From an uncultured Planctomycetota bacterium (lineage in GTDB: Bacteria > Planctomycetota > Planctomycetia > Pirellulales > Lacipirellulaceae), in the NCBI GenBank assembly GCA_963719315.1, contig CAVRBU010000003.1, positions 400,206-464,205 on the forward strand: a DNA stretch of 64,000 bases, read 5' to 3'. Below, piece after piece: positions 6,530-59,824 of this stretch. The notes under the pieces are model-generated. The model was not told the origin of the DNA and ran no database searches. It saw only the letters and a list, made by a program, of their open reading frames with translations. The position numbers and the translations under genes were made by a program. Positions within the stretch are counted from its first letter, which is position 1. Each line of letters opens with the position of its first letter.

Positions 6530-6861
6530 TACACCACGTAAGCGCTCACAAACCTCGGAAAATCCTCGCTCGTCCGTACGATCCACGCCGTGCGCACTTG
6601 CGCTTGGCCCGTCGGTCCTGATAATAGACATTCTATCACGTAACGCTGGCCGTGCACATTCGGCGGCACCTGAAGAGCCTCGTCGTTGGCGGCCGCGTCG
6701 AAAAGCTGTTCGCGCATCAATTCCGCGTTTTCAGCAGTGAACCCACACGAGGCACGGAACACGCGGGCTTTGTGCTTTCCGCGGGGATGGTCCGGGTTGA
6801 GGCAGTAGTCGGTGAGCTTTTCCAGATCGATCACCGCTTGCTGGCCGTTAGGGAGTTTCAT
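6529..6861 (-). CDS. DUF6883-family protein (putative toxin partner of DUF4926)
   Basis: MKLPN...KLTDYCLNPDHPRGKHKARVF...PRFVSAYV. Confidence 0.8.
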   Translation of the reverse strand: MKLPNGQQAVIDLEKLTDYCLNPDHPRGKHKARVFRASCGFTAENAELMREQLFDAAANDEALQVPPNVHGQRYVIECLLSGPTGQAQVRTAWIVRTSEDFPRFVSAYVV

Positions 6862-6990
6862 TTCGTCGCCGCCTCCACTAAGGCGATTTCGGCGTCGGTG
6901 AGGTTGTAGAGTTGGTAGACGAGTCGGCCGATCTCGGCGTCGGAGTGCTCGATTTGGCGCTGGAGGGCGGTTCGCTCGTGGTCGGTGCGG
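6858..6990 (-). pseudogene. Orphan duplicate of the RM gene 3' end
   Basis: Encodes RTDHERTALQRQIEHSDAEIGRLVYQLYNLTDAEIALVEAATK*; 6955-6986 is identical to 7971-8002. Confidence 0.9.
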
Positions 6991-7046
6991 CTTTACCTCT
7001 ATACACACGGTAGCGCCAAGAGTGTACCTACGTCGCCGCTGGATAT

Positions 7047-7874
7047 TCAAGAAGTCAGCGGCCGTTTTAGGCTCTCAAGTTCCGCTGCTTCTCGTTGTGT
7101 ATTCTCTCGGGCTTCACGCTCAAAATTCTCGACCTTCAGCCGTAGGAAAGCTTCCGGATTTCGTTCGCAATGGTAATGGTGATGTCGCATTTTGAGTTCT
7201 TCTTCCGCCGTCTGTTTTTCATGCTCGCTCGGTTTGATGTAACCAAGTAGCTTCAAAGCGCCATGAATGGCCTTGCCTATGCCATAAGCAACAATGATAA
7301 AACCAAGGGCCGGACTTGCAAAACCCAGGAATGCTACCAAAGTTGGCACGGCAACGCCCCACGCGGCAATTACAAGTATTCCGAGTCGAATGGTCTTGGC
7401 GCGTTGAACGGCCTTGATGCGCCGTTCTTCCTTGGTACTACACGGAACGTTATCATAGATGTTCACTAATTGCGGTTCGCGGAGCGGCCCTAAGGAGAAC
7501 TCCTCATTCTTCAGCGTTTTCCAGTGTCGGACCAATTTGCCATCTTCGACGAGTCCGATCAAATGGTCGCATGTTCGCACTCCCTCGAGAGGGATAACGC
7601 TCTCAGCATCATCGAATGCAGTAACCATTAAAGGGACGGGATATCGTTGAATCCATGTGTTGCATTCGTTCTCCATGATTTCCGCAATCTCGGATGATCC
7701 CAGATGCTCAAGAATGACCACACTAAGTGATGCAAAATACCCGCCGGGCCATGTTGGCACGTACTCGACAAAATACTTGCCGCGATGTTCCTTAATGGTC
7801 TTAAAGATGAGTCCTTTCTCATGTGCTTTCGATGCTCGTAAATCACGGTCGGACGCATTCGCTTCGCCGCTCAT
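7047..7874 (-). CDS. Hypothetical membrane protein (AT-richer cargo)
   Basis: 275-aa ORF with two hydrophobic segments and a charged helical C-terminus; ATGA overlap with the RM stop. Confidence 0.75.
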   Translation of the reverse strand: MSGEANASDRDLRASKAHEKGLIFKTIKEHRGKYFVEYVPTWPGGYFASLSVVILEHLGSSEIAEIMENECNTWIQRYPVPLMVTAFDDAESVIPLEGVRTCDHLIGLVEDGKLVRHWKTLKNEEFSLGPLREPQLVNIYDNVPCSTKEERRIKAVQRAKTIRLGILVIAAWGVAVPTLVAFLGFASPALGFIIVAYGIGKAIHGALKLLGYIKPSEHEKQTAEEELKMRHHHYHCERNPEAFLRLKVENFEREARENTQREAAELESLKRPLTS

Positions 7875-10854
7875 CGTGTTGTCCCCTTCTGCACTAATGC
7901 AATTTCTTCGCCTGTCAGGCCGTACAGCTCATACACCAGCCGGTCGATTTCCGCGTCGGTGTGTTCGATCTGGCGCTGGAGGGCGGTTCGCTCGTGGTCG
8001 GTCCGGGCTGTCGACCGTCGTTTGGCGAGCTCAATGGCGTGGCTGCCATGCTCGTGGAGTGATGTGTCATCAATCGTCGCCGGATCGACGGGCAGCTTGT
8101 TAATATATTGATTGAACAAGCGGTATGCCCCGCCACGGTTTGCGGGGCAGTGGCGTGTTATCCAAAACCAAGCGAGCTTGGAATTCAAATAGGCGAGCAA
8201 CGCTACATTACTTGTGGGGATACAGAATGCGGTATTGCTTGGATAGGATCCATCGACATTCAGCGCGAACTTAGGACGTGAGGCCAAGTCGGGGTACATT
8301 ATTTTCGGTCGTTCGAAAATGTCGGTGTGCGCCACCTGTCGTATCACCCACCAGTCGTAATCTCCACGGCGTACCTCATAGCGATCGCGAAGTTTCTTCT
8401 GATGTTGCAATAGATATCGTTTCACCGAGGGAAACTCGTCGATGTCGATTGCTTCGCGAGTGCAAACTAAGAATTGGCCGTTCGTTTCTGTAAGCCATCT
8501 GGTAATGTCGCGTCCTCGCGTAAACGGCCGAAGTATTTCGCGTGCGCGCTCGTTTTGCCGGACCATTTCTGCGGCACTTCTCTGGTCGATCACAAATACT
8601 TCGTTGAGACTCGTCTTTACTCCTAGCTGTGCCTCGCCAGCCATAGCGGCAAGTTGTGGATGCGCGGCTAGCCTTTCGAGGAGTAACTGTTGCGTCTTTG
8701 GGACAAGCAGCCATTGTGGAGACGAAAGTGCTGAAACGGGTACTGAGTAAGCATTGCGTTGGACGTCACGGGGCAACAGTCCAGTCGAAGGCGTTGCGCG
8801 AGAATACATCAACGAATCGCGCTTCGTGACTGCGTTTTTTTTCGCTATTAAAATTACGGGGTACGTCGTTGCTCCATGAAACAATTGCATGTCGCCGTAG
8901 TCAATGATGCTTTGAAACACAAAGTTAGAAAGGTACTTCCGGGCAGCAACTCCATAACCTGCGTGTACGAATTTGCCAGAACAAATTACACCCAACATTC
9001 CGGATTGACGAAGCAAATAAAGGCCGCGTTCAAGGAAGTACACATACAAGTCAGCTAAACCATGAAACGATTCATATTTGGAACTGAAGTATTGTTTGAA
9101 TGCCGAAACACCCTCTTGTCGAACGTATGGCGGATTTCCAATCACCGTCTCGAACCCAGGGTTGTCGCCAGCGAAGATATCCCGAAAGCCGAATTTACCT
9201 TTCCAATCGAAGGCGTTGATACGCAGCATTTCATCTTCGTCGAACAAGTCGCGTTGTTTGCCTTCGTAAAAGTCGGGGCCGATTAGGCTGTTGCCGCATT
9301 TGATGTTGCCATTTAGGTCGGGCAGCACCGTTCTTTGTGAAACGCTTCGAGCTGGCGGAGCGTGGCCTGGGTTTCGCCTTCGAGGACTTTTAACAGCAGC
9401 GAGAGCTTCGTGACCTCGACGGCTTGCGAATCGATATCCACGCCGTAGATGTGGGAGAGCAGGATTCGCTTGCGCTCGGCGGTGGTGAGCCGCCAATCGC
9501 CGGTGGCGGATTGGTAGATGCGCGGGTTCGCGCCGCGATGGTGCGGTTTCGGGTCGTCGGCCGTGTATTGCTTGAGATACCAGTCGAGCAGAAATTGATA
9601 GGCGACGATCAGAAACGAACCGCTGCCGCAGGCCGGGTCGAGCACGGTTAACGGCCGAGAATTCTTAGCAGGCTTGTAGGTGGTGGTGAGTCCGCCGACT
9701 TCTTGGGGCGTTTTGCCTTCGACCAGTTTGCCGACGCCCGCCTTGCGGACTTCCGGCTTCTCTTCGATTTTGGCCCGGTGGCCGGCGGTGAGGCGAATTA
9801 CTTTGCCCAGGAACTGCTCGTAGACCTGGCCGAGGATATCGGCCGGCAGGGCCGCGAACTCGTAGGGGCTGTCTGGATAATAGAGCCGCCGCAAGATCTC
9901 TTTCAAGACTTTGTCGTCGACGATGAGGCTTGGCGTAAGCTCATCGGGCTCCTGGCGATCTTTTTCCTTCTGGAAGTGGAACAGGCCGGAGTTAAATTTT
10001 TCGTCGGCGCGGTGAAAGATTTCGACGAGGCGGGGATAGACGCGGTCGCCGTTGAGCAGCGATTGCAGCCGGCCGTAAGGCTCGATGTCGCGGCCTTCGC
10101 ACATGCGGAGGAAGATGATGCGGTCGATGATGAGCTGCACGGCGGCGTTCAGCTCGCGATCGGTGATCGATTCGTTCCGCAAGCTGAGATTTTTTGCCAG
10201 CGATTCGCGCCAGGATTCGATTTCTTCCAAAAAGGCTTCGTCGACTTCGGCAGTGCCGCGTTTTTTCTTGGTCGAGCCGGCGAAGTCGTCGAACCGGCCT
10301 TTAAGGACCGCTTCACGAGAGAAGATGCCGGCGACTTCGCCCCAGCGGTCGATGTAGTCGGTGTAGCTAAGGAGCATGACGCGAGCGGTGGCGGCGCTGT
10401 CGTCTTTGTCTGGCTTGATGCGACAATCGTAGACGGCGAATTCCTCGAAGTCGGTGAGGATCGAGAGGGGCAGCTTGGCCGTCCAGGCGTAGCGCCGCAG
10501 TTGGAATGCGGGGCCCACGTCGCTTTTGATATCGACGGCCGGCTTCTTGGCCTCGACGAAGAATTTCGGCACCGGGCCGATGCGGATGCAGTAGTCGGGC
10601 GCTTTGACAGTCTTCTCGACGCGCAGGCCTTGTTCCAGGATTACGTCGCGGTAGTTTTCGTGGATCCCGGCGCGGTTGTAGATGTCCCAGCCGAGTGCGA
10701 TCAGGAAGGGATCGAGAAAATCTTGCCGAAGTTGCGTTTCGTTGTAATTGCCGCGGTGATAGGTATCGCGATGCTCGGCGAATTTTTCGACCAGATCGCG
10801 AATTTCGCGTGGGGCAGTGGTGGAAGCTGGCTTCGAGTCGGACTTTTTGGCCAT
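7871..10854 (-). CDS. Type IIG (Eco57I-like) restriction-modification enzyme; frameshift near 9329, motif X apparently deleted
   Basis: PD..EAKK nuclease (KAPDY...FVEAKKP), LDPACGSGSFL, GVDID, IGNPPY, TaqI-C-like TRD and LVYELYGLT.EEI tail; adding one G restores KERVLPDL. Confidence 0.9.
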
Positions 10855-11085
10855 GGCATAGGTGAGGGACGACAGGTTCGTTGGCGGCTGCGATTTGCGC
10901 TCTCCTCGCCACGGCGAGTCTATGACCGGCGGGAGAGGGAGCATTGGTTCGCGGCCAGTTTAGCGAACGTCGCAGACGAATGCCAGGATTGGCGCGGGAG
11001 CTTGCGGCGCACCGACAAGCGGCCGGGCAGAGTTGATGATCGTGGCGGTGCACAATCGGCCGACAATCGGCGCCGCGCGACTTTG

Positions 11086-17692: not shown

Positions 17693-20044
17693 CTACTGGT
17701 TCAGCGAATACAACAGCACGTTCAGCCCAATCCGTGCGGCGTCTTGTTGGGTGTAGCCGCGGCAGCCGATGGCTTCGTGGCTTTCCAGCGCGCAGCTGAT
17801 GTCGTACGGCGAAAAGATCACGGCCCAGCGGCCATCGAGTTGAATGCCTTCGAGTTGCGGCTCGACCTGACGGACGCGGGCGGCGATCGGTTGTTTGCCA
17901 TCTCCGGCCGCTTCGGGGTCGCGGAGGGAGACGTTGCGAATGTCGTAGCCACCGTAGGCATTCGTGAAGAGCGGGTCGTTGATCGGGATGCGTGAAAACG
18001 TGTGGCCGGCGAGCGCGGCAGTGACTTCGCGGCGGAAAGCGGCGGCGAACGGTTTGCTCGCGCAGATCGAATCGGCGAGCAGCGTGCCGCCGCGTTCGAG
18101 GTATTGGCGGAGTTGCGTGCGCTCGGCGTCGGTGAGGTGGAAGTCGTAGCGGCCGTGCATGAATGCCAGGTGATAGCGGAACAGGCTGGGGTCGCTGATG
18201 TTGATCAGGTCAGGGGCGGCGCGGACTTGAAGTTTCAGCTCGCCTTGTGAGGCGGTGCGGAGCAGGTTGAGGAGCGCGCCGGGCGCGTCGTTGCAGCCGC
18301 CGCCGTGGCGGAGCTTGGCGATTTCGATCACTCCGCGGGTGGTTCCGTCCGCTGAAGCGGCCTCGCCGGCGGGCGTGTCGAAGCTTTGTTCTTTGCCTTT
18401 GGGTTCGCGGTTGGTGGCGTAGGTGAGGATGTTGACGCCGATGGCCAGCGCGTCGGCGATATGTTGGACGACATCGGCCGGATAGTGATTCCATTGGCCA
18501 GGGCGAGCAAGCTCCCAGTAACATGACAAGTCCTGATCGCAGTAGACGACGCACGTGCGGCAACCGTATTCCACGCCATACAAATGACCGGCGTAGGGCG
18601 AGTCGGGCCGGACCATGTCTTGCATTCGCCACACGGGATGGCCGGGCGGTATCGGTTGCAGTTTGTACTCGGACTCCGGGAAAACGGCAGACATCAATTG
18701 TCGAAACGCCGAGTCAAAACGGCTCGAATCGGTACAGCAGGCTTCGGCGCAGATGAAGCCGCCGCGGTCGACATAGTCGCGCAGCTTCTGCGCGTGAGGC
18801 TGCAAACTCGGCGCCTGGCTGCCGCTGATGTAGAGCACCGGCGCTTGCAACAAATCTTCGACGCTGGCCTTCGCGGGATCCATCACCTGCCAGGTTAGGC
18901 CGAGGCCCCAGGCGTCTTCGGCGTACTCGGTCAGGTGGGCGGCGTCTCGGCGGTGTTGGTTCCAGGCGTCGCCTTCGCCGTACTTGACCTTGGCCATGAC
19001 GACGGGGCGGCGGCCCTTCGACAGGAACAATAGGGCCATCGCGGTGCTGATGCGCGGCTCGCGCTCGGCGTACCAAGTTCCCTTCCAATAATGCGAGAGG
19101 GAATCTTGTTCGCGGGCGAGGAACTCCGCGCCTTCACGGTACCAATCGTGGTCGCCGATGAAGCGGTGGGCGGTGAGGCGGCCGGCGCGTTCGACGCCGT
19201 ACAGATAATAGTAGAGACACGCCTGGCCGCCACCGGCGGGGCGCGGGTTGTGATTGACCGAGAAGTGCGTGGCCAGCCAACCGATCGCGCGGTCGAGCTT
19301 GTCGTCGACATCGTGCGGCCGGCAACAAATCACGCGGCCGTTTTCGACGGTTGCGTCGCCCGACTCCAGCGCGGCCGACGAGACGGCCAAGCCGCCGATG
19401 CCGGCGCAAGTCATGCTACCGGTGCCGGAATCGCCCGGCACGTAGCCCCACGAGCCGTCTTCGTTCTGCGTGGTGCGCCAATAGTTGGCGGCGAGAACCC
19501 AAGTGTCGTGGCTGACATCGGCGCCGATTCGCTGCGCGTCAAACAACGCCAGCACGGCGAATTGCGAGTTGCTGTTGTCGCCGCCGGGTCCGGGATAGGA
19601 CCACGCACCCTTCCGCTGGCCGTCTTTGATTTGATGCTCCTCCAGCCACTTCACGTTGCGGCGGATATCGAGCATATCTCTTTTCGGCTCCGCGGCGCAG
19701 AGAACCATCGTCTGCAGCGAAACCGTATACGTTTTGTCGGGTTCGAGGCTACGCAGATATTTGATACCCTGCTGCACGACCGGGTCGTCGACGGGTACGC
19801 CGGAATTGATGAGCGCGAGCGTGCAGAGGGCCGTGACGCCCCCTTCGTAACCGGGCAATTCGCCCCACCGGCCGCGCGGTTGCTGGTCGCGCTTGAGGTA
19901 GGCAACTCCGCGATCGATCGACTCGATGACTTGGGCGGCGTCGATCGGCCGTTCTTGCGGTTTTTGAGCTAGCGTTCTGGCGGGCGCTACAATTGTTACG
20001 ATCGGCAAGATCGCAACGAAGGATAGCGCCGGGTGAAGTCGCAT
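17693..20044 (-). CDS. Prenyltransferase/squalene-cyclase-like repeat + two DUF4159 domains
   Basis: GDNSNSQFAVLAL, QNEDGSWGY, YYYLYGVERAG and HDWYREGA; DUF4159-like LRDYVDRGGFI and YLERGGTLLADS. Confidence 0.85.
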   Translation of the reverse strand: MRLHPALSFVAILPIVTIVAPARTLAQKPQERPIDAAQVIESIDRGVAYLKRDQQPRGRWGELPGYEGGVTALCTLALINSGVPVDDPVVQQGIKYLRSLEPDKTYTVSLQTMVLCAAEPKRDMLDIRRNVKWLEEHQIKDGQRKGAWSYPGPGGDNSNSQFAVLALFDAQRIGADVSHDTWVLAANYWRTTQNEDGSWGYVPGDSGTGSMTCAGIGGLAVSSAALESGDATVENGRVICCRPHDVDDKLDRAIGWLATHFSVNHNPRPAGGGQACLYYYLYGVERAGRLTAHRFIGDHDWYREGAEFLAREQDSLSHYWKGTWYAEREPRISTAMALLFLSKGRRPVVMAKVKYGEGDAWNQHRRDAAHLTEYAEDAWGLGLTWQVMDPAKASVEDLLQAPVLYISGSQAPSLQPHAQKLRDYVDRGGFICAEACCTDSSRFDSAFRQLMSAVFPESEYKLQPIPPGHPVWRMQDMVRPDSPYAGHLYGVEYGCRTCVVYCDQDLSCYWELARPGQWNHYPADVVQHIADALAIGVNILTYATNREPKGKEQSFDTPAGEAASADGTTRGVIEIAKLRHGGGCNDAPGALLNLLRTASQGELKLQVRAAPDLINISDPSLFRYHLAFMHGRYDFHLTDAERTQLRQYLERGGTLLADSICASKPFAAAFRREVTAALAGHTFSRIPINDPLFTNAYGGYDIRNVSLRDPEAAGDGKQPIAARVRQVEPQLEGIQLDGRWAVIFSPYDISCALESHEAIGCRGYTQQDAARIGLNVLLYSLNQ

Positions 20045-36570: not shown

Positions 36571-36571
36571 A

Positions 36572-36931: not shown

Positions 36932-36960
36932 TTGACAGCGGATATTCACCGCGTTACATT
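36932..36960 (+). promoter_or_regulatory. Sigma70 promoter upstream of the riboswitch
   Basis: TTGACA-17 nt-TACATT. Confidence 0.75.
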
Positions 36961-36975
36961 GCCTGCGTTCGACGT

Positions 36976-46704: not shown

Positions 46705-47497
46705 CTACTTTCCCCACAGAGGCCATAGCCGGCCGCCGCTGTTTTCAATGCGCGACAGTCGCGTGCGGTAAACCGCTTCGATTGCTTCGCGTGTGATGAT
46801 GTCGTGCGTGGGGCCGGTGGCATGGACGCGGCCGTCGTTGAGAATCAGTATGTTCTGGATGCCGGGGACGATTTCCTCGATGTGGTGCGTCACAAGGACA
46901 ACCGTGGGGGTTTCCGGCTGCACGAGTCGCTCGTTGAGCCACGCCAGAAACCGCTCGCGCACGCCTGGGTCCATACCAGCACACGGCTCATCGAGCACCA
47001 GCATCAGCGGCCCCGCCATGCGGGCACGGGCGATGAGCACCTGCTGCCGCTCGCCCTGCGAGAGCACGCCGAACGGCTTTTCGGTGAGATCCCGGCAGCC
47101 GAGACGTTCGAGCTCTGCCTCCGCGTCGGCGAAATCCGCATCGGTCGGTCCGAACTCCGGAAACCGCTTCAAGCCCAACTGCCCCAACCGGCCGCTGACG
47201 ACTGTTTCCAGCGCGGAATCGGTCGGCGGAATGTCGGCGATCATGCCCGACGAAATCCAACCGATGCTCCGCCGCAGCTCGATCAGATCAAGTCAATTCT
47301 TCGCCCAGCCGCAGGACGCGCCCGCTGGTGGGCCAGAGATAGCCGCACGCGATCTTCAGCAGCGTGGTTTTGCCGGAGCCGTTCGGCCCGAGTACGGCCC
47401 AGTGTTGGCCGGGATCGATTCGCCAGTTGATATCGGTAAGGATATCGAGGTCGCTTTGACGATAGCCGACCGCTTCGCAGGTAATGAGGTCGCACAC
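46705..47497 (-). CDS. ABC transporter ATP-binding protein (ModF-like), frameshift near 47290
   Basis: GPNGSGKTT in 47288-47497; LSQGE and LDEP in 46705-47244. Confidence 0.85.
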
Positions 47498-47506
47498 AAT
47501 TGCTGT

Positions 47507-48097
47507 CTAGCTATCTGGGTTATCCAACAAAGTTTGCAATCGCTCGGCCAACTCTCCTGCGAACCGCGTCGGCCAGGAATCATCGATCAACCCAACGCTA
47601 ATCATATCCAGCAGATGAACTCGATCTTTGAGCCGATACGAAGTGAGCTTCATGCGCACGAGCGGTTCAAGATCAACGACATGAAATGGACCAGCGGTGT
47701 CCACTTCGGTCACGTCCGGCGATGCCGCAACGTAGTCTGCCGAGACCTTTTCTCCTGCAAACACAATATGGATAGCGTCGCGAGCTTTCGCGCCGTCGCC
47801 ATCCAGAAACATGTCGACGCTTTTCACATGACGAAAGATGAAACCGGCGGCGGCGAGAGCGGTCTTTGTCCGTTCCAAATCATCTCGGCGTAAGAGAATG
47901 TCTACATCCTGCGTGTTACGCACGGCGGCTTCATCGACTCGCGACACCCAAGCCGCAACCGCGTTGCCGCCAGCGACTCCATACGGAATGCCGGCCCCTT
48001 CAAGTGCGGCGACTGCCCGATCCAGTCGTGCCCGGACCTTTTCCACGGCGCGGATCATCCTTTCCCAGGAAACGGGACCGTAATGAATGGAAGACAT
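47507..48097 (-). CDS. Nucleotidyltransferase-fold protein
   Basis: YGVAGGNAVAAW...RNTQDVDILL and MKLTSYRLKDRVHL. Confidence 0.75.
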   Translation of the reverse strand: MSSIHYGPVSWERMIRAVEKVRARLDRAVAALEGAGIPYGVAGGNAVAAWVSRVDEAAVRNTQDVDILLRRDDLERTKTALAAAGFIFRHVKSVDMFLDGDGAKARDAIHIVFAGEKVSADYVAASPDVTEVDTAGPFHVVDLEPLVRMKLTSYRLKDRVHLLDMISVGLIDDSWPTRFAGELAERLQTLLDNPDS

Positions 48098-48129
48098 GGC
48101 GGCCGAGATCGTCTAGGATTTGCCCCTCT

Positions 48130-48197
48130 CTAATTTACTACGTCCGCAATCGCCTCGCACAACGGCCCAACGATTGTTCCGGGATGCCCGCGACGTT
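48130..48197 (-). pseudogene. Orphan duplicate of the aspC 3' end
   Basis: 48146-48172 is identical to 48953-48979, and 48183-48197 to 48991-49005; retains its own stop. Confidence 0.9.
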
Positions 48198-48210
48198 AGT
48201 GTGATAGGCG

Positions 48211-48408
48211 TTAGCTCTTTGAGTCGCTGGAAACAGGCCGCGACTGGTCGCCCTGTTTCTTATTTTTCAACGACGTAATCAAACGGTCGCCGTGCTTGGC
48301 TTGCGACTGACGAATGAACTCGAAGAACTTTGACAAATCGTTATCACACTTTTCAAAAAGTTCCCGGCGCACTTTATGCACTTCCTCGACAATTGGGTCG
48401 TTTATCAT
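48211..48408 (-). CDS. Small putative antitoxin
   Basis: DPIVEEVHKVRRELF pattern, downstream of a PIN gene. Confidence 0.7.
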   Translation of the reverse strand: MINDPIVEEVHKVRRELFEKCDNDLSKFFEFIRQSQAKHGDRLITSLKNKKQGDQSRPVSSDSKS

Positions 48409-48413
48409 CGAAA

Positions 48414-48902
48414 TTACTCCTGTGGTTCACCCATCAATTCTTCTGGCGTACAAATGATCGGCATCCATAGGCCTAATCGTGCATTAACGGATCGCAGCTT
48501 CCGAGTAACGATCGCATTGGCCAAATGGGCACAATTCCAGGTAACAAGGTAATCCACTTCGTAGGCCACGGCGAATGCGACATGTGGCACGTCGTCCAGG
48601 GCGCTACCTACGAGGCCAAGCTCCATCACGTAGGTATTGGCCAATTCTTCGACATTCATGTCGGACACGAGAATTGGCAAATTCTTGACAATTTCGAGGC
48701 GTCGCGACGCAAGCTTTGAATCGCCTCTCGCTAGCTCTTCATACACGACGTCAGAAATCAATAATTCAAACCGGTCTACCGCTGTCTGCCACCAATCGTG
48801 GGTCGTTCGTTGATGACCGGCCACTACAATGTCGCGACTTGGTTCGGCGACAAGGTAACTCGGGATCGTCGTTTCGACATAGACCGATGGCTTATCTGCC
48901 AT
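48414..48902 (-). CDS. PIN-domain (VapC-like) toxin
   Basis: VYVETTIPSYL and DVPHVAFA...DYLVTWNCAHLAN...ICTPEEL. Confidence 0.85.
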   Translation of the reverse strand: MADKPSVYVETTIPSYLVAEPSRDIVVAGHQRTTHDWWQTAVDRFELLISDVVYEELARGDSKLASRRLEIVKNLPILVSDMNVEELANTYVMELGLVGSALDDVPHVAFAVAYEVDYLVTWNCAHLANAIVTRKLRSVNARLGLWMPIICTPEELMGEPQE

Positions 48903-48933
48903 TATACACTCCCGCGGATGCGTCGTATTCTTG

Positions 48934-50130
48934 CTATCCTTTTACCACCTCTGCAATCGCCTCGCACAACGGCCCAACGTTTTGCTCCGTGATGCCCGCG
49001 ACGTTGATGCGGCCGGAACCCACGATGTAAATCGAGTACTTTTGCTTGAGCGCTTCGACTTGCGGCGGCGTGAGGCCGGAGAACGAGAACATGCCGCGTT
49101 GGCGGGTGATGAACGAATAGTCGCCCGGCACGCCCTTGGCTTTGAGCGTTTTCATCAGCAGCTCGCGCATGCCGTTGATGCGGGCCCGCATTCCGGCCAC
49201 TTCCTGCGTCCACCGCTTGCGAAGCTCGGCGTCGTTCAGCACGGTGGTGACCAGCTCGGCGCCGTGGGCGGGCGGGTTCGAGTAGTTCGAGCGGATGCAG
49301 ACCTTCACCTGGCTCTGCACGGTGTCGGCAGCGGCTTTGTCCTTGGCGACGACCGTAAGCGCACCGACGCGCTCGCAATAAAGACCAAAGTTTTTTGAGA
49401 ATGAACTGCAGACAATGATCTCGGCGCCGGGGCGGCTGAATGCTCTTAGGCCGACCGCGTCTTCCTCGATACCTTCGGCGAAGCCTTGGTAGGCGAAGTC
49501 CAACAGCGGCAGCAGGCCACGTTCGTAGATGACTTCCGCCAGCCTAGTCCATTGGGCCGGCGTAGGGTCGATTCCGGTCGGGTTGTGGCAACAGCCGTGG
49601 AGCATAATAATGTCGCCGGCCGGTATCTTTTCGATGGCGGCGATCGCTTCGTCGAACTCCAGACTGTTCGTCTTGGCGTCGAAGTAGGGAAAGCTTTTCG
49701 TGGGCACACCGGCGGCGGCGAAAATCTGCGGATGGTTGGGCCACGTTGGCTGCGTGAGCCACAGCGTCGCCTTCGGCAGGTGCTGGTGAATGAAATCCGC
49801 CGCTACGCGGAGCGCCCCAGTGCCGCCGGGAGTATGCGATGTCGCGGCCCGGCCGGACGCTTCGACTTCATGCCCCTTGCCGAACATCAACTGCTGCACG
49901 GCAGCGGCGTAGACTGGCGAACCGGGAATCGGCAGGTACGACATCGATTTTTGCCGTTCCAGCACCAACTGGCCGGCCTTGTGCACCGAATCCAGGATCG
50001 GCGTTTTGCCGGTCGAGTCCTGGTAGACGCCGACGCTGAGGTTGATCTTTTTGGGGTTCGGATCCTCGCGAAAGGATTCGGTCAGACCAAGAATCGGGTC
50101 GCGCGGGGCGGGTTGAATGGCTTTGAACAT
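48934..50130 (-). CDS. aspC: Aspartate/aromatic amino acid aminotransferase
   Basis: DPILGL, HGCCHNPTG, DFAYQGF, SFSKNFGLY.ER and SGRINVAG. Confidence 0.93.
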   Translation of the reverse strand: MFKAIQPAPRDPILGLTESFREDPNPKKINLSVGVYQDSTGKTPILDSVHKAGQLVLERQKSMSYLPIPGSPVYAAAVQQLMFGKGHEVEASGRAATSHTPGGTGALRVAADFIHQHLPKATLWLTQPTWPNHPQIFAAAGVPTKSFPYFDAKTNSLEFDEAIAAIEKIPAGDIIMLHGCCHNPTGIDPTPAQWTRLAEVIYERGLLPLLDFAYQGFAEGIEEDAVGLRAFSRPGAEIIVCSSFSKNFGLYCERVGALTVVAKDKAAADTVQSQVKVCIRSNYSNPPAHGAELVTTVLNDAELRKRWTQEVAGMRARINGMRELLMKTLKAKGVPGDYSFITRQRGMFSFSGLTPPQVEALKQKYSIYIVGSGRINVAGITEQNVGPLCEAIAEVVKG

Positions 50131-50201
50131 CAAGTTTGGTTCCTGTAGTCAGAATATGCTTAGAGTCGTCGGGTGGTGTCCTAATTTGCCGCACAACAAA
50201 C

Positions 50202-52525: not shown

Positions 52526-53914
52526 TTGTCTTGCCGCACAGGCCTGATTACCGATATTCTGCACTCTCTGATCCTTCGTCCTTCGACCCCAACCGGCAGA
52601 TCCTTGACATCCCCATCAACGGACAAGCAACAGCCTCCAGTGCCCGCATCTGCGTCGGGCTTTGGCGGTTTGGGGCTGAGTGAGTCGATGCTCGCATCGC
52701 TCGAGCGAGCCGCGTACCTCGATCCGACTCCCGTCCAAGCAGGAATCATTCCCCGCGCGCTCGAGGGGGGCGATGTGTTGGGTCAGGCCCGCACGGGCAC
52801 CGGCAAAACGGCGGCTTTCGCGATCCCGATCATCGAACGAATCCAGCACGGCGGAAAAGCTACGCCACCCCGCGCGTTGGTGCTCGTGCCGACGCGGGAG
52901 CTCGCCGTGCAAGTCCGCGAGGAGTTCGAAAAGCTCGCTCACGGCCGCCGCCTGAATAGCGTGCCCATTTACGGCGGCAAACCAATTCGCGGACAGGTCG
53001 CCAAACTGGAGCGCGGGGCCGATGTGATCATCGGCACGCCCGGCCGTGTGATCGATCTCATCGGCCGCGGCGCGCTCGACCTGCGTTCGATCGAAATCGT
53101 AGTTTTGGATGAAGCCGACCGCATGCTCGACATTGGCTTCCGGCCCGATATTGAAAAAATCCTCCGTCGCTGTCCGAAGGATCGACAGACTCTACTCTTG
53201 AGCGCCACCGTCGCCCCGCCGGTTGAACGGCTGGCCCGCACGTACATGCGCGATCCGGAGATCATGGATTTCTCGCCCAAGAGCAAGTCGGTCGACACGA
53301 TCGATCAGTTCTATTTTACCGTCGATCACGAGCAGAAGTTCGACCTGTTGGTGCAGCTCATCAAACGCGACAAGCCGGAGCAAGCCATCGTCTTCTGCCG
53401 CACGAAGCGCGGCACGGAGCGGATTCATCGCCGGCTCTCGAAGCATTTCCCCGGCACGGATATGATGCACGGCGACATGCAGCAGAGTGCTCGCGACCGG
53501 GTGATGAAGGCCTTTCGCGCCGGCGACGTGCAAATCCTGGTGGCGACCGACGTCGTGGGTCGCGGCATCGACGTGACTCGTATCTCGCACATCATCAACT
53601 TCGACATCCCGCAGTCGTCGGACGATTACGTGCATCGCGTCGGCCGCACCGGCCGCATGGGCCGCGAGGGCATCGCTTACACGTTCGTCACGACCGAAGA
53701 GGGCGGTGAGCTGACGCGGATCGAAATGCTCATCAACCGACTGCTGAAGCGCGACGAGATCGAGGGCTTCTCCACCGTTGCCGCCTTGTCGCGAGCGGCG
53801 GCACTCCCCGCCGACGAAACAGACGCGGCGCCGGAAGAACCGGAAGAGCCAAAACCGGCTCGCCCCCTGCCCCCGGGCCGCCGGGCGCAAAAGCGCCATC
53901 GCCGGGCGCTTTGA
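52526..53914 (+). CDS. DEAD-box RNA helicase
   Basis: ARTGTGKT, PTRELA, TPGR, DEAD, SAT and HRVGRTGR; extended -10 TGATATAAT at 52492-52500; start uncertain. Confidence 0.95.
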   Translation: MSCRTGLITDILHSLILRPSTPTGRSLTSPSTDKQQPPVPASASGFGGLGLSESMLASLERAAYLDPTPVQAGIIPRALEGGDVLGQARTGTGKTAAFAIPIIERIQHGGKATPPRALVLVPTRELAVQVREEFEKLAHGRRLNSVPIYGGKPIRGQVAKLERGADVIIGTPGRVIDLIGRGALDLRSIEIVVLDEADRMLDIGFRPDIEKILRRCPKDRQTLLLSATVAPPVERLARTYMRDPEIMDFSPKSKSVDTIDQFYFTVDHEQKFDLLVQLIKRDKPEQAIVFCRTKRGTERIHRRLSKHFPGTDMMHGDMQQSARDRVMKAFRAGDVQILVATDVVGRGIDVTRISHIINFDIPQSSDDYVHRVGRTGRMGREGIAYTFVTTEEGGELTRIEMLINRLLKRDEIEGFSTVAALSRAAALPADETDAAPEEPEEPKPARPLPPGRRAQKRHRRAL

Positions 53915-53922: not shown

Positions 53923-56900
53923 TCACTTCGGAGACACGCGGAGCATTTCCAACAGCGCCGGCAGCACCGTCAACGCTAAAGGCAACTGCACGACCAGCCC
54001 AGCGATAATCGCGATTGCCAGCGGTTGCTGCATTGCGGAGCCCGGGCTCAGCCCGAGGGCCAGAGGAAGCAGCGCCAGGATGGCTGCTAAAGTCGTCATG
54101 GCGATGGGTCGCATGCGGTTCACTCCGGCCCGCAGTAAGCGTGCTCTCCGATCGGTTACATCGACTAATTCTTGAAACTCCGAATAATAAAAGATTCCCA
54201 CCTCGGTAACGATTCCCACGACCATCGTCATGCCCATCATCGCGGTAATATTCAATTCGGTGCCAGTCCACCAGAGACCGGTGAACACGGAGGACAGGGC
54301 CAGCAGCGTGGTTAGCATCATGGCCAGCGCCACGCGAAAGCTTTCATACATGAACAACAGCAGAACGAATACCAGCAACACGGCAGAAACAAAAACCGCC
54401 AACAATCCGCGGAACGCCAATTGCTGCTGTTCATACAGCCCACCGAGCTCGTAATAGACCTCGTGCGGCAACAGGCCCTGGCGCTCGAGGGTTTTGGTTA
54501 CGTCAGCTATCGTCGAGCCCAAGTCGCGGCCGCTGATCCGACCGGTGACGGCCACCATCTGTTTAAGATTATCGCGCGTGATCTGTGGCTGGCCGCTTAT
54601 GGTTTCGATGTGCGCAATACGCTTCAGCGGAAACTGGTGGCCATCCGGCGCTATCAGGCGCAGCGCTTCGATGTCCTTGACCGTGGCACGACTGCTCTGT
54701 GGAATCCACACGCGGAGACCAATCATCTTGGGCGAGGATTGCACTTGCGTCGTAACCACGCCCGTCAAATAACCGTCGAGTATTTGCGTCACTGCGTCGG
54801 CAGCCATGCCTTCCAGTGCGACTTTCTCGCGATCCACGTGAATTTCCAACGCATCGCCCGCAAGCACGATGCCATTGTTGACGTCGACGACACCAGCAAC
54901 TTGCGCGATTGCGTCGGCGACTTGTGGCGCCACTCGTCGCAGCAGAGCGCCGTCATCGGAAAACAGCTTGATCTCAATGGGCTGCGGCACAGCGGTTAGA
55001 TCGCCGATTAAGTCTTCCATTAAGAGCGCCATCTCAATCTGCAGTCCCGGCACCGAGTGTTCGACTTGCAGCCGGACATCGTTCATAACCGTCTGAATGT
55101 CGCGGCGCGGCAGTGGCTTCAGTCGTATGAAAAAGTCCCCTTCATTGGCTTCGGTAACTCCTCCGCCCAATTGCAATCCAGTCCGACGCGAATAGGTTTG
55201 AACTTCAGGAGTGTCGTGAAGGATTTTCTCGACTTTTCGGAGCAAGCGATCGGTCTCGGTCAAAGAGGTACCGGGCGCCGCGCGATAGTCGAAGATAAAT
55301 CCCCCTTCGTCCATCGAAGGCATAAAGCCCGATCCCGTGTTTTGATAGCTGACCCAACCCAGTATCAGTAGAGGGGCGATCGCCAGCCAAATGATCCAAG
55401 GTCGCGGCAGCACGAACCGCATGAACCAGGAATAAACCGCCTGCGCAGCCGCTGTTGGCCTGCCGCCCTCAGGCTGTTGGGCATCGCGTTCGCTAAGGAT
55501 TGCCCTGGCCAATATCGGCACGGCGATCCAAGCAATGCAAAATGAAATCACGAGACTGGCGGCCATGGTCACCGACAAGGCCTTGAAAAAAGCTCCGCTG
55601 ACGCCGGATAAGAAAGCCAACGGCACGAAAATAATGATCGTGGACATCGATGAGCCCACGAGTGGCCAGGTGAATTCGGACACGGCCGCCGAGATCCGCT
55701 CGTCAATGCTCGTGCTGCCGCTTCGCAATCGCCGGACGAGGTGCTCGATCATCACCGTGGCGTCGTCGATGATCAATCCAACTGCGGCGGCCATTCCTCC
55801 CAGCGTCATGATATTAAAACTCATGTGCATTACCGCCAGGAGCAAAATCGTCATTGCTAAGACGGCCGGAACCTTTATCATCGCAATGAACGCGACTTTC
55901 AGGTTGCGAAGAAAGACCAGTATGATCAACGCGGCCAACGCCACGCCGATCAGCACGGCATCGCGGACACTATTCACCGAGGAAACGATCAACTCACTCT
56001 GGTCGTACCAGTTGGCGATGTGAACGTCGGGAGGCAAGCGCTTTTGCAGCTCGGCGAGCTTCGGTTCAAGTTGACGGGCGATCTGGACCGTGTTGCCGCC
56101 CAACTGCTGATACACCTGGAACAACACGGCATCGTGGCCATCGGCCGTTACCCGCGTCCATTGAGGGACCGTCCCCTGGCTGATCGTGGCCACGTCGTCC
56201 AAAGTCACGAGCCCATTTTCGCCGGAGCGGATCACAGTTTGGCCAATCTCTTTGAAACTGTTGAACTGAGTATCCGAAAGAATTAGATACAGCTTGCCGT
56301 GATCTTCCAGTCGGCCAACCGCTCGAATTACGTTGGATCCCGAGAGGGCCGTGCCGACATCGGCAATCGAGAGTCCAAAAGAATCCAGCTTTTCCGGCGT
56401 GACGATGACCTGGTACTCAGCCGTCTCGCCGCCTAAAACGCCAATCCGCGCAACGCCGGGGACTGTCGACAGGACGGGACGGATTTGATACAGCGCGATG
56501 TCTCGCAGGTCCACGAGGGAGCGAGTGTTGGAAGTCAGACTGAAGCCCAGCGCCGGAAAAACAGTGGGGTCCATGCGGCGAACGTCGAACTGCGTTTCGG
56601 AAGGCAGTGTCGATCGAATGAGGTTGAGCGCCGATTCCGTTTGCAGCGTGGCGGCCACCATGTCCTGGCCCCAACCGAAATTGATGGACAATTCGGCACT
56701 GCCGCGACTCGTCGTGGAACGCAAGCTCTTTACACCGGGGACGGACCGTATCGCTTCTTCGACCGGTTGAGTTACTTCGACGACCATTCGCTCCGCGGGA
56801 CGGTCGCCGGCATCCAGGCTGATCACCACCCGCGGAAATGTTACGAGCGGAAAGAGACTCGCCGGTAGATTCAGGCTGCTGATCAAGCCCCCCAGGCTGA

Positions 56901-56961
56901 ATACTGCCAGGAGGAAAAGAACCGACCGGCGATGCTTGTAGGCACGTTCAGCGATATTCAC
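53923..56961 (-). CDS. RND efflux permease (AcrB/CusA family)
   Basis: 1012 aa; GLIIDDATVMIE and RMRPIAMTT. Confidence 0.95.
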   Translation of the reverse strand: MNIAERAYKHRRSVLFLLAVFSLGGLISSLNLPASLFPLVTFPRVVISLDAGDRPAERMVVEVTQPVEEAIRSVPGVKSLRSTTSRGSAELSINFGWGQDMVAATLQTESALNLIRSTLPSETQFDVRRMDPTVFPALGFSLTSNTRSLVDLRDIALYQIRPVLSTVPGVARIGVLGGETAEYQVIVTPEKLDSFGLSIADVGTALSGSNVIRAVGRLEDHGKLYLILSDTQFNSFKEIGQTVIRSGENGLVTLDDVATISQGTVPQWTRVTADGHDAVLFQVYQQLGGNTVQIARQLEPKLAELQKRLPPDVHIANWYDQSELIVSSVNSVRDAVLIGVALAALIILVFLRNLKVAFIAMIKVPAVLAMTILLLAVMHMSFNIMTLGGMAAAVGLIIDDATVMIEHLVRRLRSGSTSIDERISAAVSEFTWPLVGSSMSTIIIFVPLAFLSGVSGAFFKALSVTMAASLVISFCIAWIAVPILARAILSERDAQQPEGGRPTAAAQAVYSWFMRFVLPRPWIIWLAIAPLLILGWVSYQNTGSGFMPSMDEGGFIFDYRAAPGTSLTETDRLLRKVEKILHDTPEVQTYSRRTGLQLGGGVTEANEGDFFIRLKPLPRRDIQTVMNDVRLQVEHSVPGLQIEMALLMEDLIGDLTAVPQPIEIKLFSDDGALLRRVAPQVADAIAQVAGVVDVNNGIVLAGDALEIHVDREKVALEGMAADAVTQILDGYLTGVVTTQVQSSPKMIGLRVWIPQSSRATVKDIEALRLIAPDGHQFPLKRIAHIETISGQPQITRDNLKQMVAVTGRISGRDLGSTIADVTKTLERQGLLPHEVYYELGGLYEQQQLAFRGLLAVFVSAVLLVFVLLLFMYESFRVALAMMLTTLLALSSVFTGLWWTGTELNITAMMGMTMVVGIVTEVGIFYYSEFQELVDVTDRRARLLRAGVNRMRPIAMTTLAAILALLPLALGLSPGSAMQQPLAIAIIAGLVVQLPLALTVLPALLEMLRVSPK

Positions 56962-58049
56962 GGAGCTGGCTCCGGTTTCACGGCCATTCCATGCTTGAGT
57001 TCGCTATTGCCGTTTACCACCACGAGCTGGCCCGATTGCAGGTCGGTGCCGAGAATTTGTATTTGCTCGTTGTTTTCGATGCCGACTTGGACTTCGTGCT
57101 TGACGGCACGATCGTGTTCAACCGTGAACACCACGTAATGGTCCTCCTCTGGGAGTACTGCCGACCGCGGTGCGACGAGCGAGCGGTCGGCCGCGACGAT
57201 GATTTCACCACGTACGTATTCGTTGAGCATCAAATGAGCGGTCGAGGCCGGAGCGACATACACATCGATCAAGCGCGTTTGCGGGTTGACTTGATGCGCG
57301 ATCATCTCGACCTTCGCGTCTACAACTTGGTCTTCGCCCTGGTGGATTGGAATGACTCGGACCGGCTGGCCGACATGAAGATTGCCGATGTCCTCGCTTT
57401 CGACACCGATTCGAACTTCGATTTGATTCTGATCGGTAATCTCTAACAGGGGGCTTCCGGCCGCCACGATTTGGCCCGCCTGCGCGTTGATTTGCATGAC
57501 CATCCCAGGCGCTTCGCTTTTGATCACGCGCGGTTCGGCCATACCGCGATCGAGCATGCTTTGAAGAGCGGCTTGGGCGTCCTTTAGGCGCAGTTCGGCG
57601 TCGCTCAACGACTGCCTCGTGGCAAGCTTCATGTTGACGCTTTCGCTCGTGAGCCGCTCTAATTCTTGAGCTGCCTTGAGTTCACTACGCGCTTGATCCA
57701 GTTTCAGCCGTGTGTCGGCGCTTGGCTCGATTTCGATTAGCCGGGTACCCGTGTCCACCGACTCTCCGGCCGTCACGAATACCTGGCGGACACGAACTTC
57801 AAACGGCTCGTCAATGGTTTTCGACCTTCCGAGAGCGGAAACGACGGTGCCATACGCGATCAGCGGTTCTTCGATCGATTGAATGCGGAGCGGAGCCACG
57901 AGAACTCCCACTTCGGGTTCTGGCTCAACGACGATCGAAGGCGAAGGAGCATCGCCCTGGGGCTGGTTCGCGAACCAATAAATGCCGCCGATTCCAGCCG
58001 CCGCGATTAGCAGCACGACAGCCACTTCTATCCACCGGCCAAGTTTCAT
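56958..58049 (-). CDS. RND membrane fusion protein
   Basis: N-terminal TM, lipoyl-hairpin pattern, VQVGIEN. Confidence 0.9.
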   Translation of the reverse strand: MKLGRWIEVAVVLLIAAAGIGGIYWFANQPQGDAPSPSIVVEPEPEVGVLVAPLRIQSIEEPLIAYGTVVSALGRSKTIDEPFEVRVRQVFVTAGESVDTGTRLIEIEPSADTRLKLDQARSELKAAQELERLTSESVNMKLATRQSLSDAELRLKDAQAALQSMLDRGMAEPRVIKSEAPGMVMQINAQAGQIVAAGSPLLEITDQNQIEVRIGVESEDIGNLHVGQPVRVIPIHQGEDQVVDAKVEMIAHQVNPQTRLIDVYVAPASTAHLMLNEYVRGEIIVAADRSLVAPRSAVLPEEDHYVVFTVEHDRAVKHEVQVGIENNEQIQILGTDLQSGQLVVVNGNSELKHGMAVKPEPAP

Positions 58050-59611
58050 GGCCGTGCCTCAATCGGGGTCGCCAAGATGGGCGGTAATTCTTCGAGGAGC
58101 GGTGCCGATGAACCGACGCAATTCAGATTGTAAATACCTGAGGCCAGCTCCAGCGCCACGCGAGTTTCGGCCCATGCCTGTTGTAACTTAACCGTTTCGA
58201 TTTGTCGCTCGGTCTGGGTCACCCATGCTGTGTAGTACACAATTACGTCGGCTTGCCCCTTGTCCACGGCGATACGGTACGTTGCAACGAGCTGCTCTTG
58301 CTTCGACTGCGACACTTGTGCCGCCGCGATTTGCTCCTTCAGCCACTTGAGCTGGGTCACTAGCATGACGATGTCGGTTCGGGCCTGGTAGAACCGGTTG
58401 ACGTACTCGTCATACAACTGCTGCCGAGTCGCTTCTGCCTGGGCGATCGCGCCCTGATTGCAGTCAAAAATCGGAAGGTCCACCGTGATTCCATACCCAG
58501 TCATGAAAACGTTGCTGTTGTCCCGAGATTGGGTAAGCCCGATATTTACTTTTGGGAATTGCGCCAGAACGGCCGCTCGCAAAGTCGCTTCCTGGCTGGC
58601 ATAGCCATACGTTAAGCCTACCAAATCCAGCCGCCTGTCGGACAAACAATCGACCAATTTTTCGGCCGGCGGCAACTCCGAAATGGTGGGCAATGCGATG
58701 TCTCGCTGAAGGCGAACTTCCGCCTCGGCCGGCAATCCGAGGGAACGATTCAGGGCGATTTGTTGTTGTGCGATTCGCGCTTTCAGATCGAGAAGTGAAG
58801 TTTGAGCCTGGCTGCTGGCCGCCTCCGCCGCGGCAAGGTCTAATCCGGTCTTCACGCCTAAATCGACTGCCCGATGGACCAGGTCAAGATTCTCTCCCAA
58901 GCGGTCATTCAATTGTTGTGCCAGCACCAATTGTTGTTGCAGCCCGATCAACGTGTAGGCTGCCGACTTCGTCGATTCCGCCACGACCCATTCCTGCCAA
59001 GCCACATCCAGCATGATGGCCGTGGGTTGGGCCGATGCGGCGGCAATTCGGGCCGAGCGGCCAATGAGGGATGTTATGTCCCAATTCACACCCAAGCCCC
59101 ACTCATTGAAGGCCCCCTGTGACGCGCCACCGGTAGGAGTCGCCAGGTTCCACGCTAATTGCGGGTTGGGAAGCAGTTTCGCCTGCAGAAGCTGGGCGCA
59201 CGACAGCGCGCGACGGTCGCGCTCGATCCGCAGCGCCGGATTTTGCAGCACAGCAAGCAGCGACAGCTCGTCGGGACTCAGGCCATCGTCTGCATTAAAA
59301 TCGATCGGGCACAGAATGGGGTGCTTGATCCGGGCGACAGGAACGCTGAATTGATCGATGGCAGGCGGTCGGAGCTTCGCATCGACGGCTTGTTGCGTTA
59401 GCGGCAGCGCCCGGTACCGGGAGCATCCCACGACCGCTACGAATAACGTGGCCACAACAATGGTTCGTATGGAGGACAATCCACGGTCCGTCCTGAGGCC
59501 AGCCAGCCGTTGTACGGCTCTCGCTTGCCGGTTTGCAGAAGGCACAAATGAGATGAGATCGTAATTTAAGGTCGGAGCGCGCAACGAATGATCGTCATTC
59601 AATTTGCCCAA
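58046..59611 (-). CDS. TolC-family outer membrane factor
   Basis: Lipobox-like VVGC, LLPNPQL and LPIFDCNQG; start uncertain. Confidence 0.88.
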   Translation of the reverse strand: MGKLNDDHSLRAPTLNYDLISFVPSANRQARAVQRLAGLRTDRGLSSIRTIVVATLFVAVVGCSRYRALPLTQQAVDAKLRPPAIDQFSVPVARIKHPILCPIDFNADDGLSPDELSLLAVLQNPALRIERDRRALSCAQLLQAKLLPNPQLAWNLATPTGGASQGAFNEWGLGVNWDITSLIGRSARIAAASAQPTAIMLDVAWQEWVVAESTKSAAYTLIGLQQQLVLAQQLNDRLGENLDLVHRAVDLGVKTGLDLAAAEAASSQAQTSLLDLKARIAQQQIALNRSLGLPAEAEVRLQRDIALPTISELPPAEKLVDCLSDRRLDLVGLTYGYASQEATLRAAVLAQFPKVNIGLTQSRDNSNVFMTGYGITVDLPIFDCNQGAIAQAEATRQQLYDEYVNRFYQARTDIVMLVTQLKWLKEQIAAAQVSQSKQEQLVATYRIAVDKGQADVIVYYTAWVTQTERQIETVKLQQAWAETRVALELASGIYNLNCVGSSAPLLEELPPILATPIEARP

Positions 59612-59800
59612 TCACTACGAATAGCCGCCAATAGGAAGGCACACGAAGATATCGCCGATAGCAAGGACATCGGCGACCGCAGCAATTCGCTGCTTCAATT
59701 ACTGACTTGCTAGCTGCTGTCGATCGGCGGCGGGGCGAGCTTGATCGAGGCGAAATCGGTCGGCCCTCGCAGCGAATCTTACAGTAACGCCGCCCGGCCG

Positions 59801-59824
59801 AAGCGCCATCGCCGGGCATTATAG
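59801..59824 (+). pseudogene. Orphan duplicate of the DEAD-box helicase 3' end
   Basis: aagcgccatcgccgggc is identical to 53891-53907; encodes KRHRRAL*. Confidence 0.8.

Follow-up and report, generated by a model that had tools for sequence, protein, structure and literature searches.

Displaced gene fragments lying behind an intact gene have been described at rhs loci, for which homologous recombination with circles was proposed as the route of C-terminal displacement (Jackson et al. 2009, PMC2935791), and behind the effector genes of the type VI secretion system (T6SS) of Vibrio cholerae, where homology-facilitated illegitimate recombination (HFIR) was proposed for arrays of orphan immunity genes (Kirchberger et al. 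2017, PMC5361080). In both systems the live gene is followed by fragments in direct orientation that precede older genes. Entry of a new unit is at the live gene and moves the older units back, without an integrase; the repeat is the conserved core preceding a variable toxin tip, and the displaced unit is the tip together with its immunity gene. A comparable arrangement is described here for a 64-kb stretch of DNA, hereafter called the window, which is the terminal part of contig C3 in the genome of an uncultured Planctomycetota bacterium (GCA_963719315.1; 5.93 Mb, 20 contigs, approximately 59% G+C). Three genes of the window, encoding a type IIG restriction-modification (RM) enzyme, an aspartate aminotransferase and a DEAD-box helicase, are each followed by cargo genes and then by a short orphan copy of the gene's own 3' end. 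Unlike in the Rhs and T6SS systems, the repeat consists of the last 35-135 nt of ordinary genes or of the RM gene, and the cargo is unrelated to the host gene.

Inserts of less than 20 kb without mobility genes, flanked by direct repeats of more than 30 bp, have been described as insertions with long target duplication; the repeat is single-copy in the empty genome and in some cases lies over a gene 3' end, and the species concerned were mostly naturally competent (Furuta et al. 2010, PMC2853133). The inserts there are RM systems with near-identical repeats on either side. The repeats at the loci described here likewise exceed 30 bp and occur once at the empty site (aspC, rpsA, ATPase and RtcB; approximately 35 nt at the DEAD-box helicase gene), and the inserts contain no mobility gene, whereas the cargo is diverse, most of the repeats are 77-93% identical with mainly synonymous differences, and the RM gene of the first pair is the host gene and not the insert. 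Insertion with long target duplication was reportedly already treated by Nobusato and colleagues in 2000.

The experimental mechanism of HFIR is said to have been worked out by de Vries and Wackernagel in 2002 and by Prudhomme and colleagues in the same year. A homologous anchor combined with a non-homologous join would explain the import of foreign DNA beside a conserved gene. The minimal mobile elements of Neisseria are conserved flanking genes with alternative small cassettes that are exchanged by homologous recombination, and alternative cassettes between conserved genes are also found here at aspC-ABC, RtcB-McsB and ATPase-W; to our knowledge, the Neisseria concept involves no orphan gene ends. 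Unlike an integron, the contig has no tyrosine recombinase. The literature matches listed for C-terminal displacement and recombination were mostly on Rhs, T6SS and other toxin systems, with displaced ends of ordinary genes absent among them, and nothing closer was found among the matches listed for toxin-antitoxin (TA) insertion with target duplication. The orphan tails are a known kind of scar, notable here for its frequency and its arrays, at ordinary and housekeeping genes. They are probably the scars of 3'-end displacement by host recombination, rather than the work of a dedicated element.

Gene, cargo and orphan tail at three loci of the window

The live RM gene (7871..10944, minus strand; Pfam HSDR_N, MmeI_Mtase, Eco57I and TaqI_C) ends in a tail of 44 codons (7871..8005, minus strand) whose stop codon overlaps the start of a 275-aa open reading frame (ORF). 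This ORF (7047..7874, minus strand) is the first cargo; it has a low G+C content at third codon positions (GC3, 0.50) and no Pfam or NCBIfam family, and an Atlas search yielded nothing. It is followed by the orphan RM tail (6858..6995, minus strand), a different allele of the gene end, whose stop overlaps the ATG of a DUF6883 gene. The live and orphan tails are identical at 103 of 133 nt (77%), with 30 mismatches and no gaps, which is far beyond chance, and in both the stop codon shares an ATGA overlap with the ATG of the next gene. The older module behind the orphan (5823..6861, minus strand) consists of the DUF6883 gene (6529-6861), a DUF4926 gene (6299-6517), a 49-aa ORF (6072-6221) and a second DUF4926 gene (5823-6041). 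A DUF6883 gene with one or two DUF4926 genes, found behind RM tails in the window and in four relatives (loci L051, L052, L053 and L054), is a conserved small module linked to this RM family. The RM gene itself reads as two overlapping ORFs (9313-10944 and 7871-9496), which indicates a 1-nt frameshift near 9313-9335, whereas its homologue in the related genome G005 is one ORF of 980 aa; the frameshift could reflect a pseudogene, phase variation or an assembly error.

At the second locus, the last approximately 22 codons of the live aspartate aminotransferase gene (aspC-like; 48934..50133, minus strand; Pfam Aminotran_1_2; live tail 48934-49005) recur 737 nt downstream with 89% identity over 65 nt, again far beyond chance. 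In the orphan (48130..48197, minus strand) a single 1-nt gap shifts the frame, and its stop lies one codon before that of the live tail. The contig of one public sequencing run (X2) has an extra base and two substitutions at 48170-48173 in the orphan, apparently restoring the frame, and may represent either a variant orphan or the live tail of a relative. The cargo between the copies (48211..48902, minus strand) comprises a PIN-like gene of 162 aa (48414-48902) and a gene of 65 aa (48211-48408). Neither protein had a match in Pfam or NCBIfam, and the PIN assignment comes from the Atlas only (feature score 0.98; clusters with PIN in 31-66% of members). The older genes behind the orphan (46705..48097, minus strand) encode an NTP_transf_5 nucleotidyltransferase (47507-48097) and an ABC ATPase in two frames (46705-47497). 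The frame of the latter breaks at 47244-47300; one base is missing at 47294 in a contig of another public run (X1), and the shift may reflect a strain variant or an assembly error.

The live DEAD-box helicase gene (52526..53914, plus strand; Pfam DEAD and Helicase_C; live tail approximately 53880-53914) is followed by an RND efflux operon in the opposite orientation (53923..59611, minus strand), with genes encoding AcrB-like (53923-56961), HlyD-like (56958-58049) and OEP (58046-59611) proteins by Pfam. The 5.7-kb operon had no nucleotide match (E 1e-10) in the 23 genomes of the genus that were used for this comparison. Behind it lies an orphan tail of approximately 35 nt (59790..59826, plus strand), contiguous with the older ORFs 59850-60119 and 60132-60371. 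The aligned pair (53891-53914 and 59801-59824) has an exact core of just 17 nt; it was missed by genome-wide self-BLAST at E 1e-4 and, taken alone, is at chance level. In G005, the DEAD gene leads directly into homologues of these two ORFs (orf89 and orf79), and approximately 59790-59900 of the window aligns with the G005 DEAD tail plus the adjoining downstream DNA. The copy is therefore a true remnant, approximately 35 nt long, of the old helicase tail.

The three tail pairs had been proposed in a first-pass annotation of the window, and all are real: the RM and aspC pairs exceed chance and the DEAD pair is established by the synteny with G005. As it had stated, the copies are in direct orientation, all downstream of the live gene. 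Its description of the genes that follow the orphans as TA-like or nucleotidyltransferase modules fits loosely: behind the orphans lie the DUF6883 and DUF4926 genes, the NTP_transf_5 gene at aspC and two small ORFs without family at the DEAD locus. The absence of integrases and transposases, also claimed there, was borne out. None of the 58 window ORFs scanned against Pfam belonged to a transposase family, neither Phage_integrase (PF00589) nor Resolvase (PF00239) had a match on the 464-kb contig C3 or between any tail pair, and Pfam scans of the cargo revealed no mobility genes inside the inserts. The DUF1559, PEP-CTERM, dockerin and BatA/MoxR genes of the window are content usual for Planctomycetota.

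Recurrence in the genome and among relatives

In the following, G000 is the genome under study, labels such as G002-G023 stand for genomes of the same genus and L numbers for extracted loci. When the genome was compared with itself by BLAST in 30-kb tiles, local repeats close together were more often direct than inverted (145 vs 17 at 100-1000 nt and 122 vs 35 at 1-3 kb), a difference no longer seen at 10-30 kb (88 vs 81). A frame filter retained repeats in which one copy held the end of a live ORF of 150 codons or more and the other, enclosed by a short ORF, had an aligned stop. It returned 20 rows, in which Pfam annotation shows six further gene-cargo-orphan loci. These are RtcB (cargo AbiEii and a 98-aa gene; orphan of 75 nt, 83% identical), a Mg-chelatase-like ATPase (Uma2 endonuclease; 71 nt, 89%), rpsA (approximately 1.2 kb of cargo; 103 nt, 99%), a CbiE/T methylase (PHD-like antitoxin; 100 nt, 80%), an SDR (NIPSNAP, AhpC and DsbA-like genes; 66 nt, 85%) and an FAA hydrolase (a second RND operon, 6.8 kb; 111 nt, 93%). 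The AcrB-like gene of this second operon (L039, G000:C4:493922-505922; 3998-7307) is present as three ORFs and is frameshifted or decayed. The cargo types are thus diverse and include TA-like genes, AbiEii, Uma2, redox genes and RND operons.

The first-pass annotation had suggested comparing the frequency of such copies with controls, and it is above chance by two measures. When the filter was applied in full, with an orphan-side ORF of less than 60 codons, 9 loci were obtained, compared with 2.2 +/- 1.4 (maximum 6) in 40 coordinate-shift controls. Three of the nine were not counted as gene-cargo-orphan loci, and the tally of six does not include C4:464446; the filter loci set aside were a simple 7-nt repeat (C2:196950), a palindromic repeat element (C6:114976) and a locus with 135 nt between the copies (C2:673198). 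In the second measure, 3,560 genes were called crudely and the last 103 nt of each were searched against the genome for copies less than 99% identical, within 10 kb and reaching the last 15 nt. Diverged direct copies downstream were found for 15 of the 3,560 tails, compared with 7 upstream direct, 5 downstream inverted and 1 upstream inverted copies as controls. The RM and RtcB genes were missed by the crude gene calls because frameshifts split both. In all pairs the similarity stops 0-11 nt past the stop codon. The cargo leaves 0-35 nt of the interval between the repeats unoccupied. No core shared across the loci was found.

The live and orphan copies of eight pairs differ at 18, 17 and 57 first, second and third codon positions, respectively (chi-square 33.9 against equal expectation, calculated by hand, as were the codon positions of the aspC and FAA hydrolase pairs). 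Since the differences fall mostly at third codon positions (57/92), the orphans behave as alleles and not as decayed duplicates, as their mainly synonymous differences had already suggested in the first reading, and most of the divergence arose under coding constraint on both sequences. The rpsA pair is 99% identical and the seven others 77-93%. At the ATPase locus the orphan differs from the live allele of G016 at 4 of 65 positions and from its own live tail at 7 of 65. The orphans are former or alternative ends of the live genes, contiguous with older downstream genes.

Loci in related genomes, whose alignment had been recommended, revealed empty or alternative sites at aspC, DEAD, rpsA, RtcB and ATPase. 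Between aspC and the ABC gene, 20 relatives were examined. The spacer is 12-20 nt in five and 205 nt in one; it holds the nucleotidyltransferase alone in six, the nucleotidyltransferase with other cargo in three and other cargo in five. This spacer is an insertion hot spot. The PIN cassette was not found at the aspC locus in any of the 20, and the copy of the aspC tail occurs only in the window. The aspC orphan is nearest to its own live tail (9/71 differences), followed by four relatives with a linked nucleotidyltransferase (12-13 differences of 60-71); assignment of the orphan to a haplotype from its nearest relatives was tried and abandoned, the signal being too weak. In G006 (L014, 2286-2324 and 3133-3171, oriented from aspC to ABC) a 39-nt copy of the 5' head of the ABC gene, 95% identical, lies upstream of the cargo. 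Displaced gene heads therefore also occur, and they are not enriched genome-wide.

Among relatives the N-terminal part of the RM protein is conserved (74-82% identity), the specificity part is not (23-41%), and the last approximately 44 residues are conserved again. In G005, the RM gene is followed by a PLD-like 345-aa gene, a tail, a DUF2513 gene starting at the stop of that tail, a truncated tail and the DUF6883 and DUF4926 genes, and in G007 by two 83-aa genes, a tail overlapping the start of a DUF3800 gene, a further tail, and DUF6883-like and DUF4926 genes. G015 has a longer orphan, and its DUF6883 gene is interrupted by approximately 1.1 kb; G014 has a tail behind DUF4926, and G017 has three tails. 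The DUF6883-DUF4926 pair also stands behind RM tails in G005, G014, G007 and G015. Two to three orphan RM tails are stacked in G005, G007 and G017, and the window itself contains single orphans only; the orphan RM tails of different genomes are about 90-243 nt long. Together with an ATPase array in G006, these RM arrays (G005, G007, G015, G014, G017) support the proposal of the first-pass annotation that cargo accumulates by accretion, older cargo being pushed downstream.

The ATPase locus is variable among relatives, as are aspC, RtcB-McsB and rpsA. In G023, the ATPase gene lies directly before a cyclase gene with no insert. Uma2 is cleanly inserted in G011, its stop overlapping the cyclase start with no orphan, and in G007, G016 and G022 it is followed by other DNA, also with no orphan. 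In G000, G014 and G009, an orphan ATPase tail starts 9-12 nt past the Uma2 stop; the orphan of G014 is decayed (15/64 differences) and that of G009 precedes a different gene. The G006 locus consists of the gene, cargo, a 110-nt tail, cargo, a tail of approximately 40 nt and Uma2. Orphan lengths at this gene are 110, approximately 40 and, in G000, 71 nt. The rpsA tail is contiguous with the orphan-side DNA, with no cargo, in G015, G005 and G014; the cargo occurs without orphan-side DNA in G002, G009 and G013, and G003 has neither. The RtcB-McsB spacer is 82 nt in G005 and has other contents in G021, G002, G017 and G015. At the SDR locus no informative synteny was found among the relatives.

The architecture extends to other genes of the genus. 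One unrelated locus of G007 has, in this order, a radical-SAM gene, genes for a Gp49-like toxin and an HTH protein, a 98-nt orphan tail (89%) and a nucleotidyltransferase gene belonging to the same family as that of the window. The PIN cassette has homologues at three other loci (L060-L062), where flanking tail repeats are lacking, and the aspC tail was not found before any other nucleotidyltransferase or PIN copy. Three further observations concern small genes. At the radical-SAM locus of G007 (L059, G007:C2), 82-nt direct repeats (1388-1469 and 2125-2206; 89%) flank a BrnT/BrnA TA pair. At 32667-33209 of the window, a 93-aa ORF without family and an 86-aa HTH_3 protein, which look like a TA-type pair, lie directly behind the second DUF697 GTPase gene, for which the tail search listed no orphan tail. 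Two small ORFs of low GC3 without family lie directly behind a sigma-70 gene (36335-37056), possibly as a clean cargo insertion; no orphan was listed for the sigma-70 gene in the tail search.

Origin of the orphan tails

In the displacement by host recombination favoured here, donor DNA from a related lineage would carry the end of a shared gene and different downstream genes, the cargo. Homologous recombination inside the shared gene would provide one anchor, and the far side, where homology is lacking, would be closed by an illegitimate join lying some tens of bases short of the resident stop codon. The incoming tail would complete the gene, and the resident tail would be left stranded before the older downstream gene. 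Because the genes abut or overlap, joining within the tail leaves the upstream gene unbroken and preserves the displaced gene's start signals. Selection would then filter the outcomes, and repeats of greater length would be unstable, since the copies could recombine with each other. Once formed, a unit could spread by ordinary homologous recombination, and repeated events would stack into arrays. We infer a one-sided join of this HFIR-like kind, homologous on one side and illegitimate on the other, together with uptake by transformation and a selective filter. Homologues of DprA, ComEC and Ku were found with scores above the curated cut-offs; machinery for DNA uptake and recombination is present, and competence is putative. 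Two full-length Ku homologues lie 8 kb apart (G000:C3:10610-11128 and 18973-19521), with a third, partial one on C2, and a Ku match was found in one of 14 control genomes.

The first-pass annotation had suggested an integron-like accretion, either by HFIR or by an undescribed mechanism. Neither an undescribed mechanism nor an integron-like machine is called for: orphan length at one gene varies (about 40-243 nt), Uma2 is cleanly inserted in G011, the PIN homologues have no repeats, and the Rhs, T6SS and long-target-duplication cases are close published analogues. Host recombination is favoured over a site-specific or cassette-borne machine because there is no recombinase, the orphan length varies, the same cargo occurs with and without an orphan and the PIN homologues lack repeats. 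No new machinery is required.

Several results weigh against displacement by host recombination. By a cruder criterion, a repeat ending at the stop of a long ORF, there was no enrichment (19 vs 15.5 +/- 4.6). One-sided recombination anchored in the downstream gene should also leave orphan heads, and these were not enriched upstream of genes (14 vs 11, 3 and 12 in controls); a filter for orphan heads by open frames returned approximately 100 rows and was rejected as a control, being too unspecific in a GC-rich genome. Sliding-window identity along aspC revealed a weak shift of the nearest relative in the last approximately 250 nt and no clear recombination breakpoint. The 99% identity of the rpsA pair is as expected from a true target duplication or a conspecific donor. 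Exact-identity patches within the RM (33 nt) and aspC (27 nt) pairs could blur the assignment of alleles through gene conversion between the copies. No donor sequence is known for any junction, where HFIR would be expected to leave microhomology of a few bases at the non-homologous joint. Finally, the same Uma2-to-orphan junction in three species needs either a single origin followed by spread or a cassette mechanism.

This junction and the near-identical rpsA pair keep two rivals alive, the insertion of circles and long target duplication. In the former, recombination between tail copies would excise a circle of tail and cargo, which a single RecA crossover (Campbell type) would re-insert at a homologous tail elsewhere, recreating the flanking tails and pushing older units downstream. 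The Uma2-to-tail junction shared by G000, G014 and G009, the last of which has another gene downstream, fits such a route, as do the RM arrays, built from units of a tail and a gene starting at the tail's stop, and circular intermediates were proposed for Rhs tips by Jackson et al. (2009, PMC2935791). However, no tail-to-tail joint skipping approximately 800 nt was seen in the contigs of four public runs, with depth about 1-5, and RecA acts poorly on tails as short and divergent as these (35-135 nt, 77-93% identity). An illegitimate event would still be required for the initial duplication, and orphan lengths vary between events. We regard circle insertion as rather unlikely. It is also doubtful that gene 3' ends act as portable attachment sites of a recombinase-free cassette system, in which units of tail and cargo, excised by recombination between tail copies, would pass from cell to cell, re-insert at the same gene of other genomes by one host-mediated crossover and form integron-like arrays behind ordinary and RM genes across the genus; the Uma2-to-tail junction shared by three species and the RM arrays are traces expected from such a system. 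Insertion borne by the cassette was rejected in view of the PIN-cassette homologues without flanking repeats and the other copies without the aspC tail.

A true long target duplication would have produced copies identical at birth by a staggered-break or replication mechanism, and the live tail would later have been overwritten by alleles of relatives. The youngest pair, rpsA, with 99% identity over 103 nt, is what this predicts, and duplications of 30-420 bp without mobility genes are documented for RM systems by Furuta et al. (2010, PMC2853133). It is nevertheless improbable. Most loci would require a second, independent replacement; the stop of the aspC orphan comes one codon before that of the live tail; the RM tails show many residue differences, in the manner of intact alleles; and the same cargo also occurs as clean insertions.

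The 3' ends of genes are frequent targets of integrative elements, which bring a replacement end, and the tails could be attachment (att) sites of decayed elements, or of cassettes moved in trans by a recombinase encoded elsewhere. The genome does contain 15 Phage_integrase and 7 Resolvase matches elsewhere, the match nearest to any pair lying 3.2 kb beyond the repeats of the CbiE/T locus. With no recombinase on the contig or between the pairs, cargo that fills the space between the repeats to 0-35 nt, no core common to the loci and, at the RM and ATPase genes, a repeat length that varies at one gene and so leaves no fixed crossover core, this explanation is very improbable. An assembly artefact, strain variants of a metagenome-assembled genome stitched in tandem, is hardly credible: the genome apparently comes from a soil metagenome (the public runs containing parts of the region are soil metagenomes), its frameshifts may be assembly errors and the public contigs (200-600 nt, low depth) bridged no junction, their one odd joint from 47668 to 49131 at depth 3 being uninterpretable, but the same architecture is present at homologous and other loci in at least seven separately assembled genomes (G005, G006, G007, G009, G014, G015 and G017), the cargo that separates the copies is coding and has no relation to the gene, and each orphan examined in relatives runs on into DNA that keeps its synteny there.

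Gene ends as a possible record of gene entry

For annotation, the displaced tails are a warning that a short coding-like stretch left unannotated behind a gene can be the displaced end of a gene. The one-sided route of recombination is well studied in the laboratory and has rarely been traced in natural genomes. Many dated events, with identities from 99% to 77%, can be read in the window and its relatives, where empty, clean, scarred and stacked states are found together, so that the relative roles of illegitimate joining, of recombination between repeats and of selection for intact gene junctions become directly testable. If the scars mark one-sided homologous recombination, they would provide a readable record of how small defence, TA and efflux modules enter compact chromosomes without mobile-element genes.

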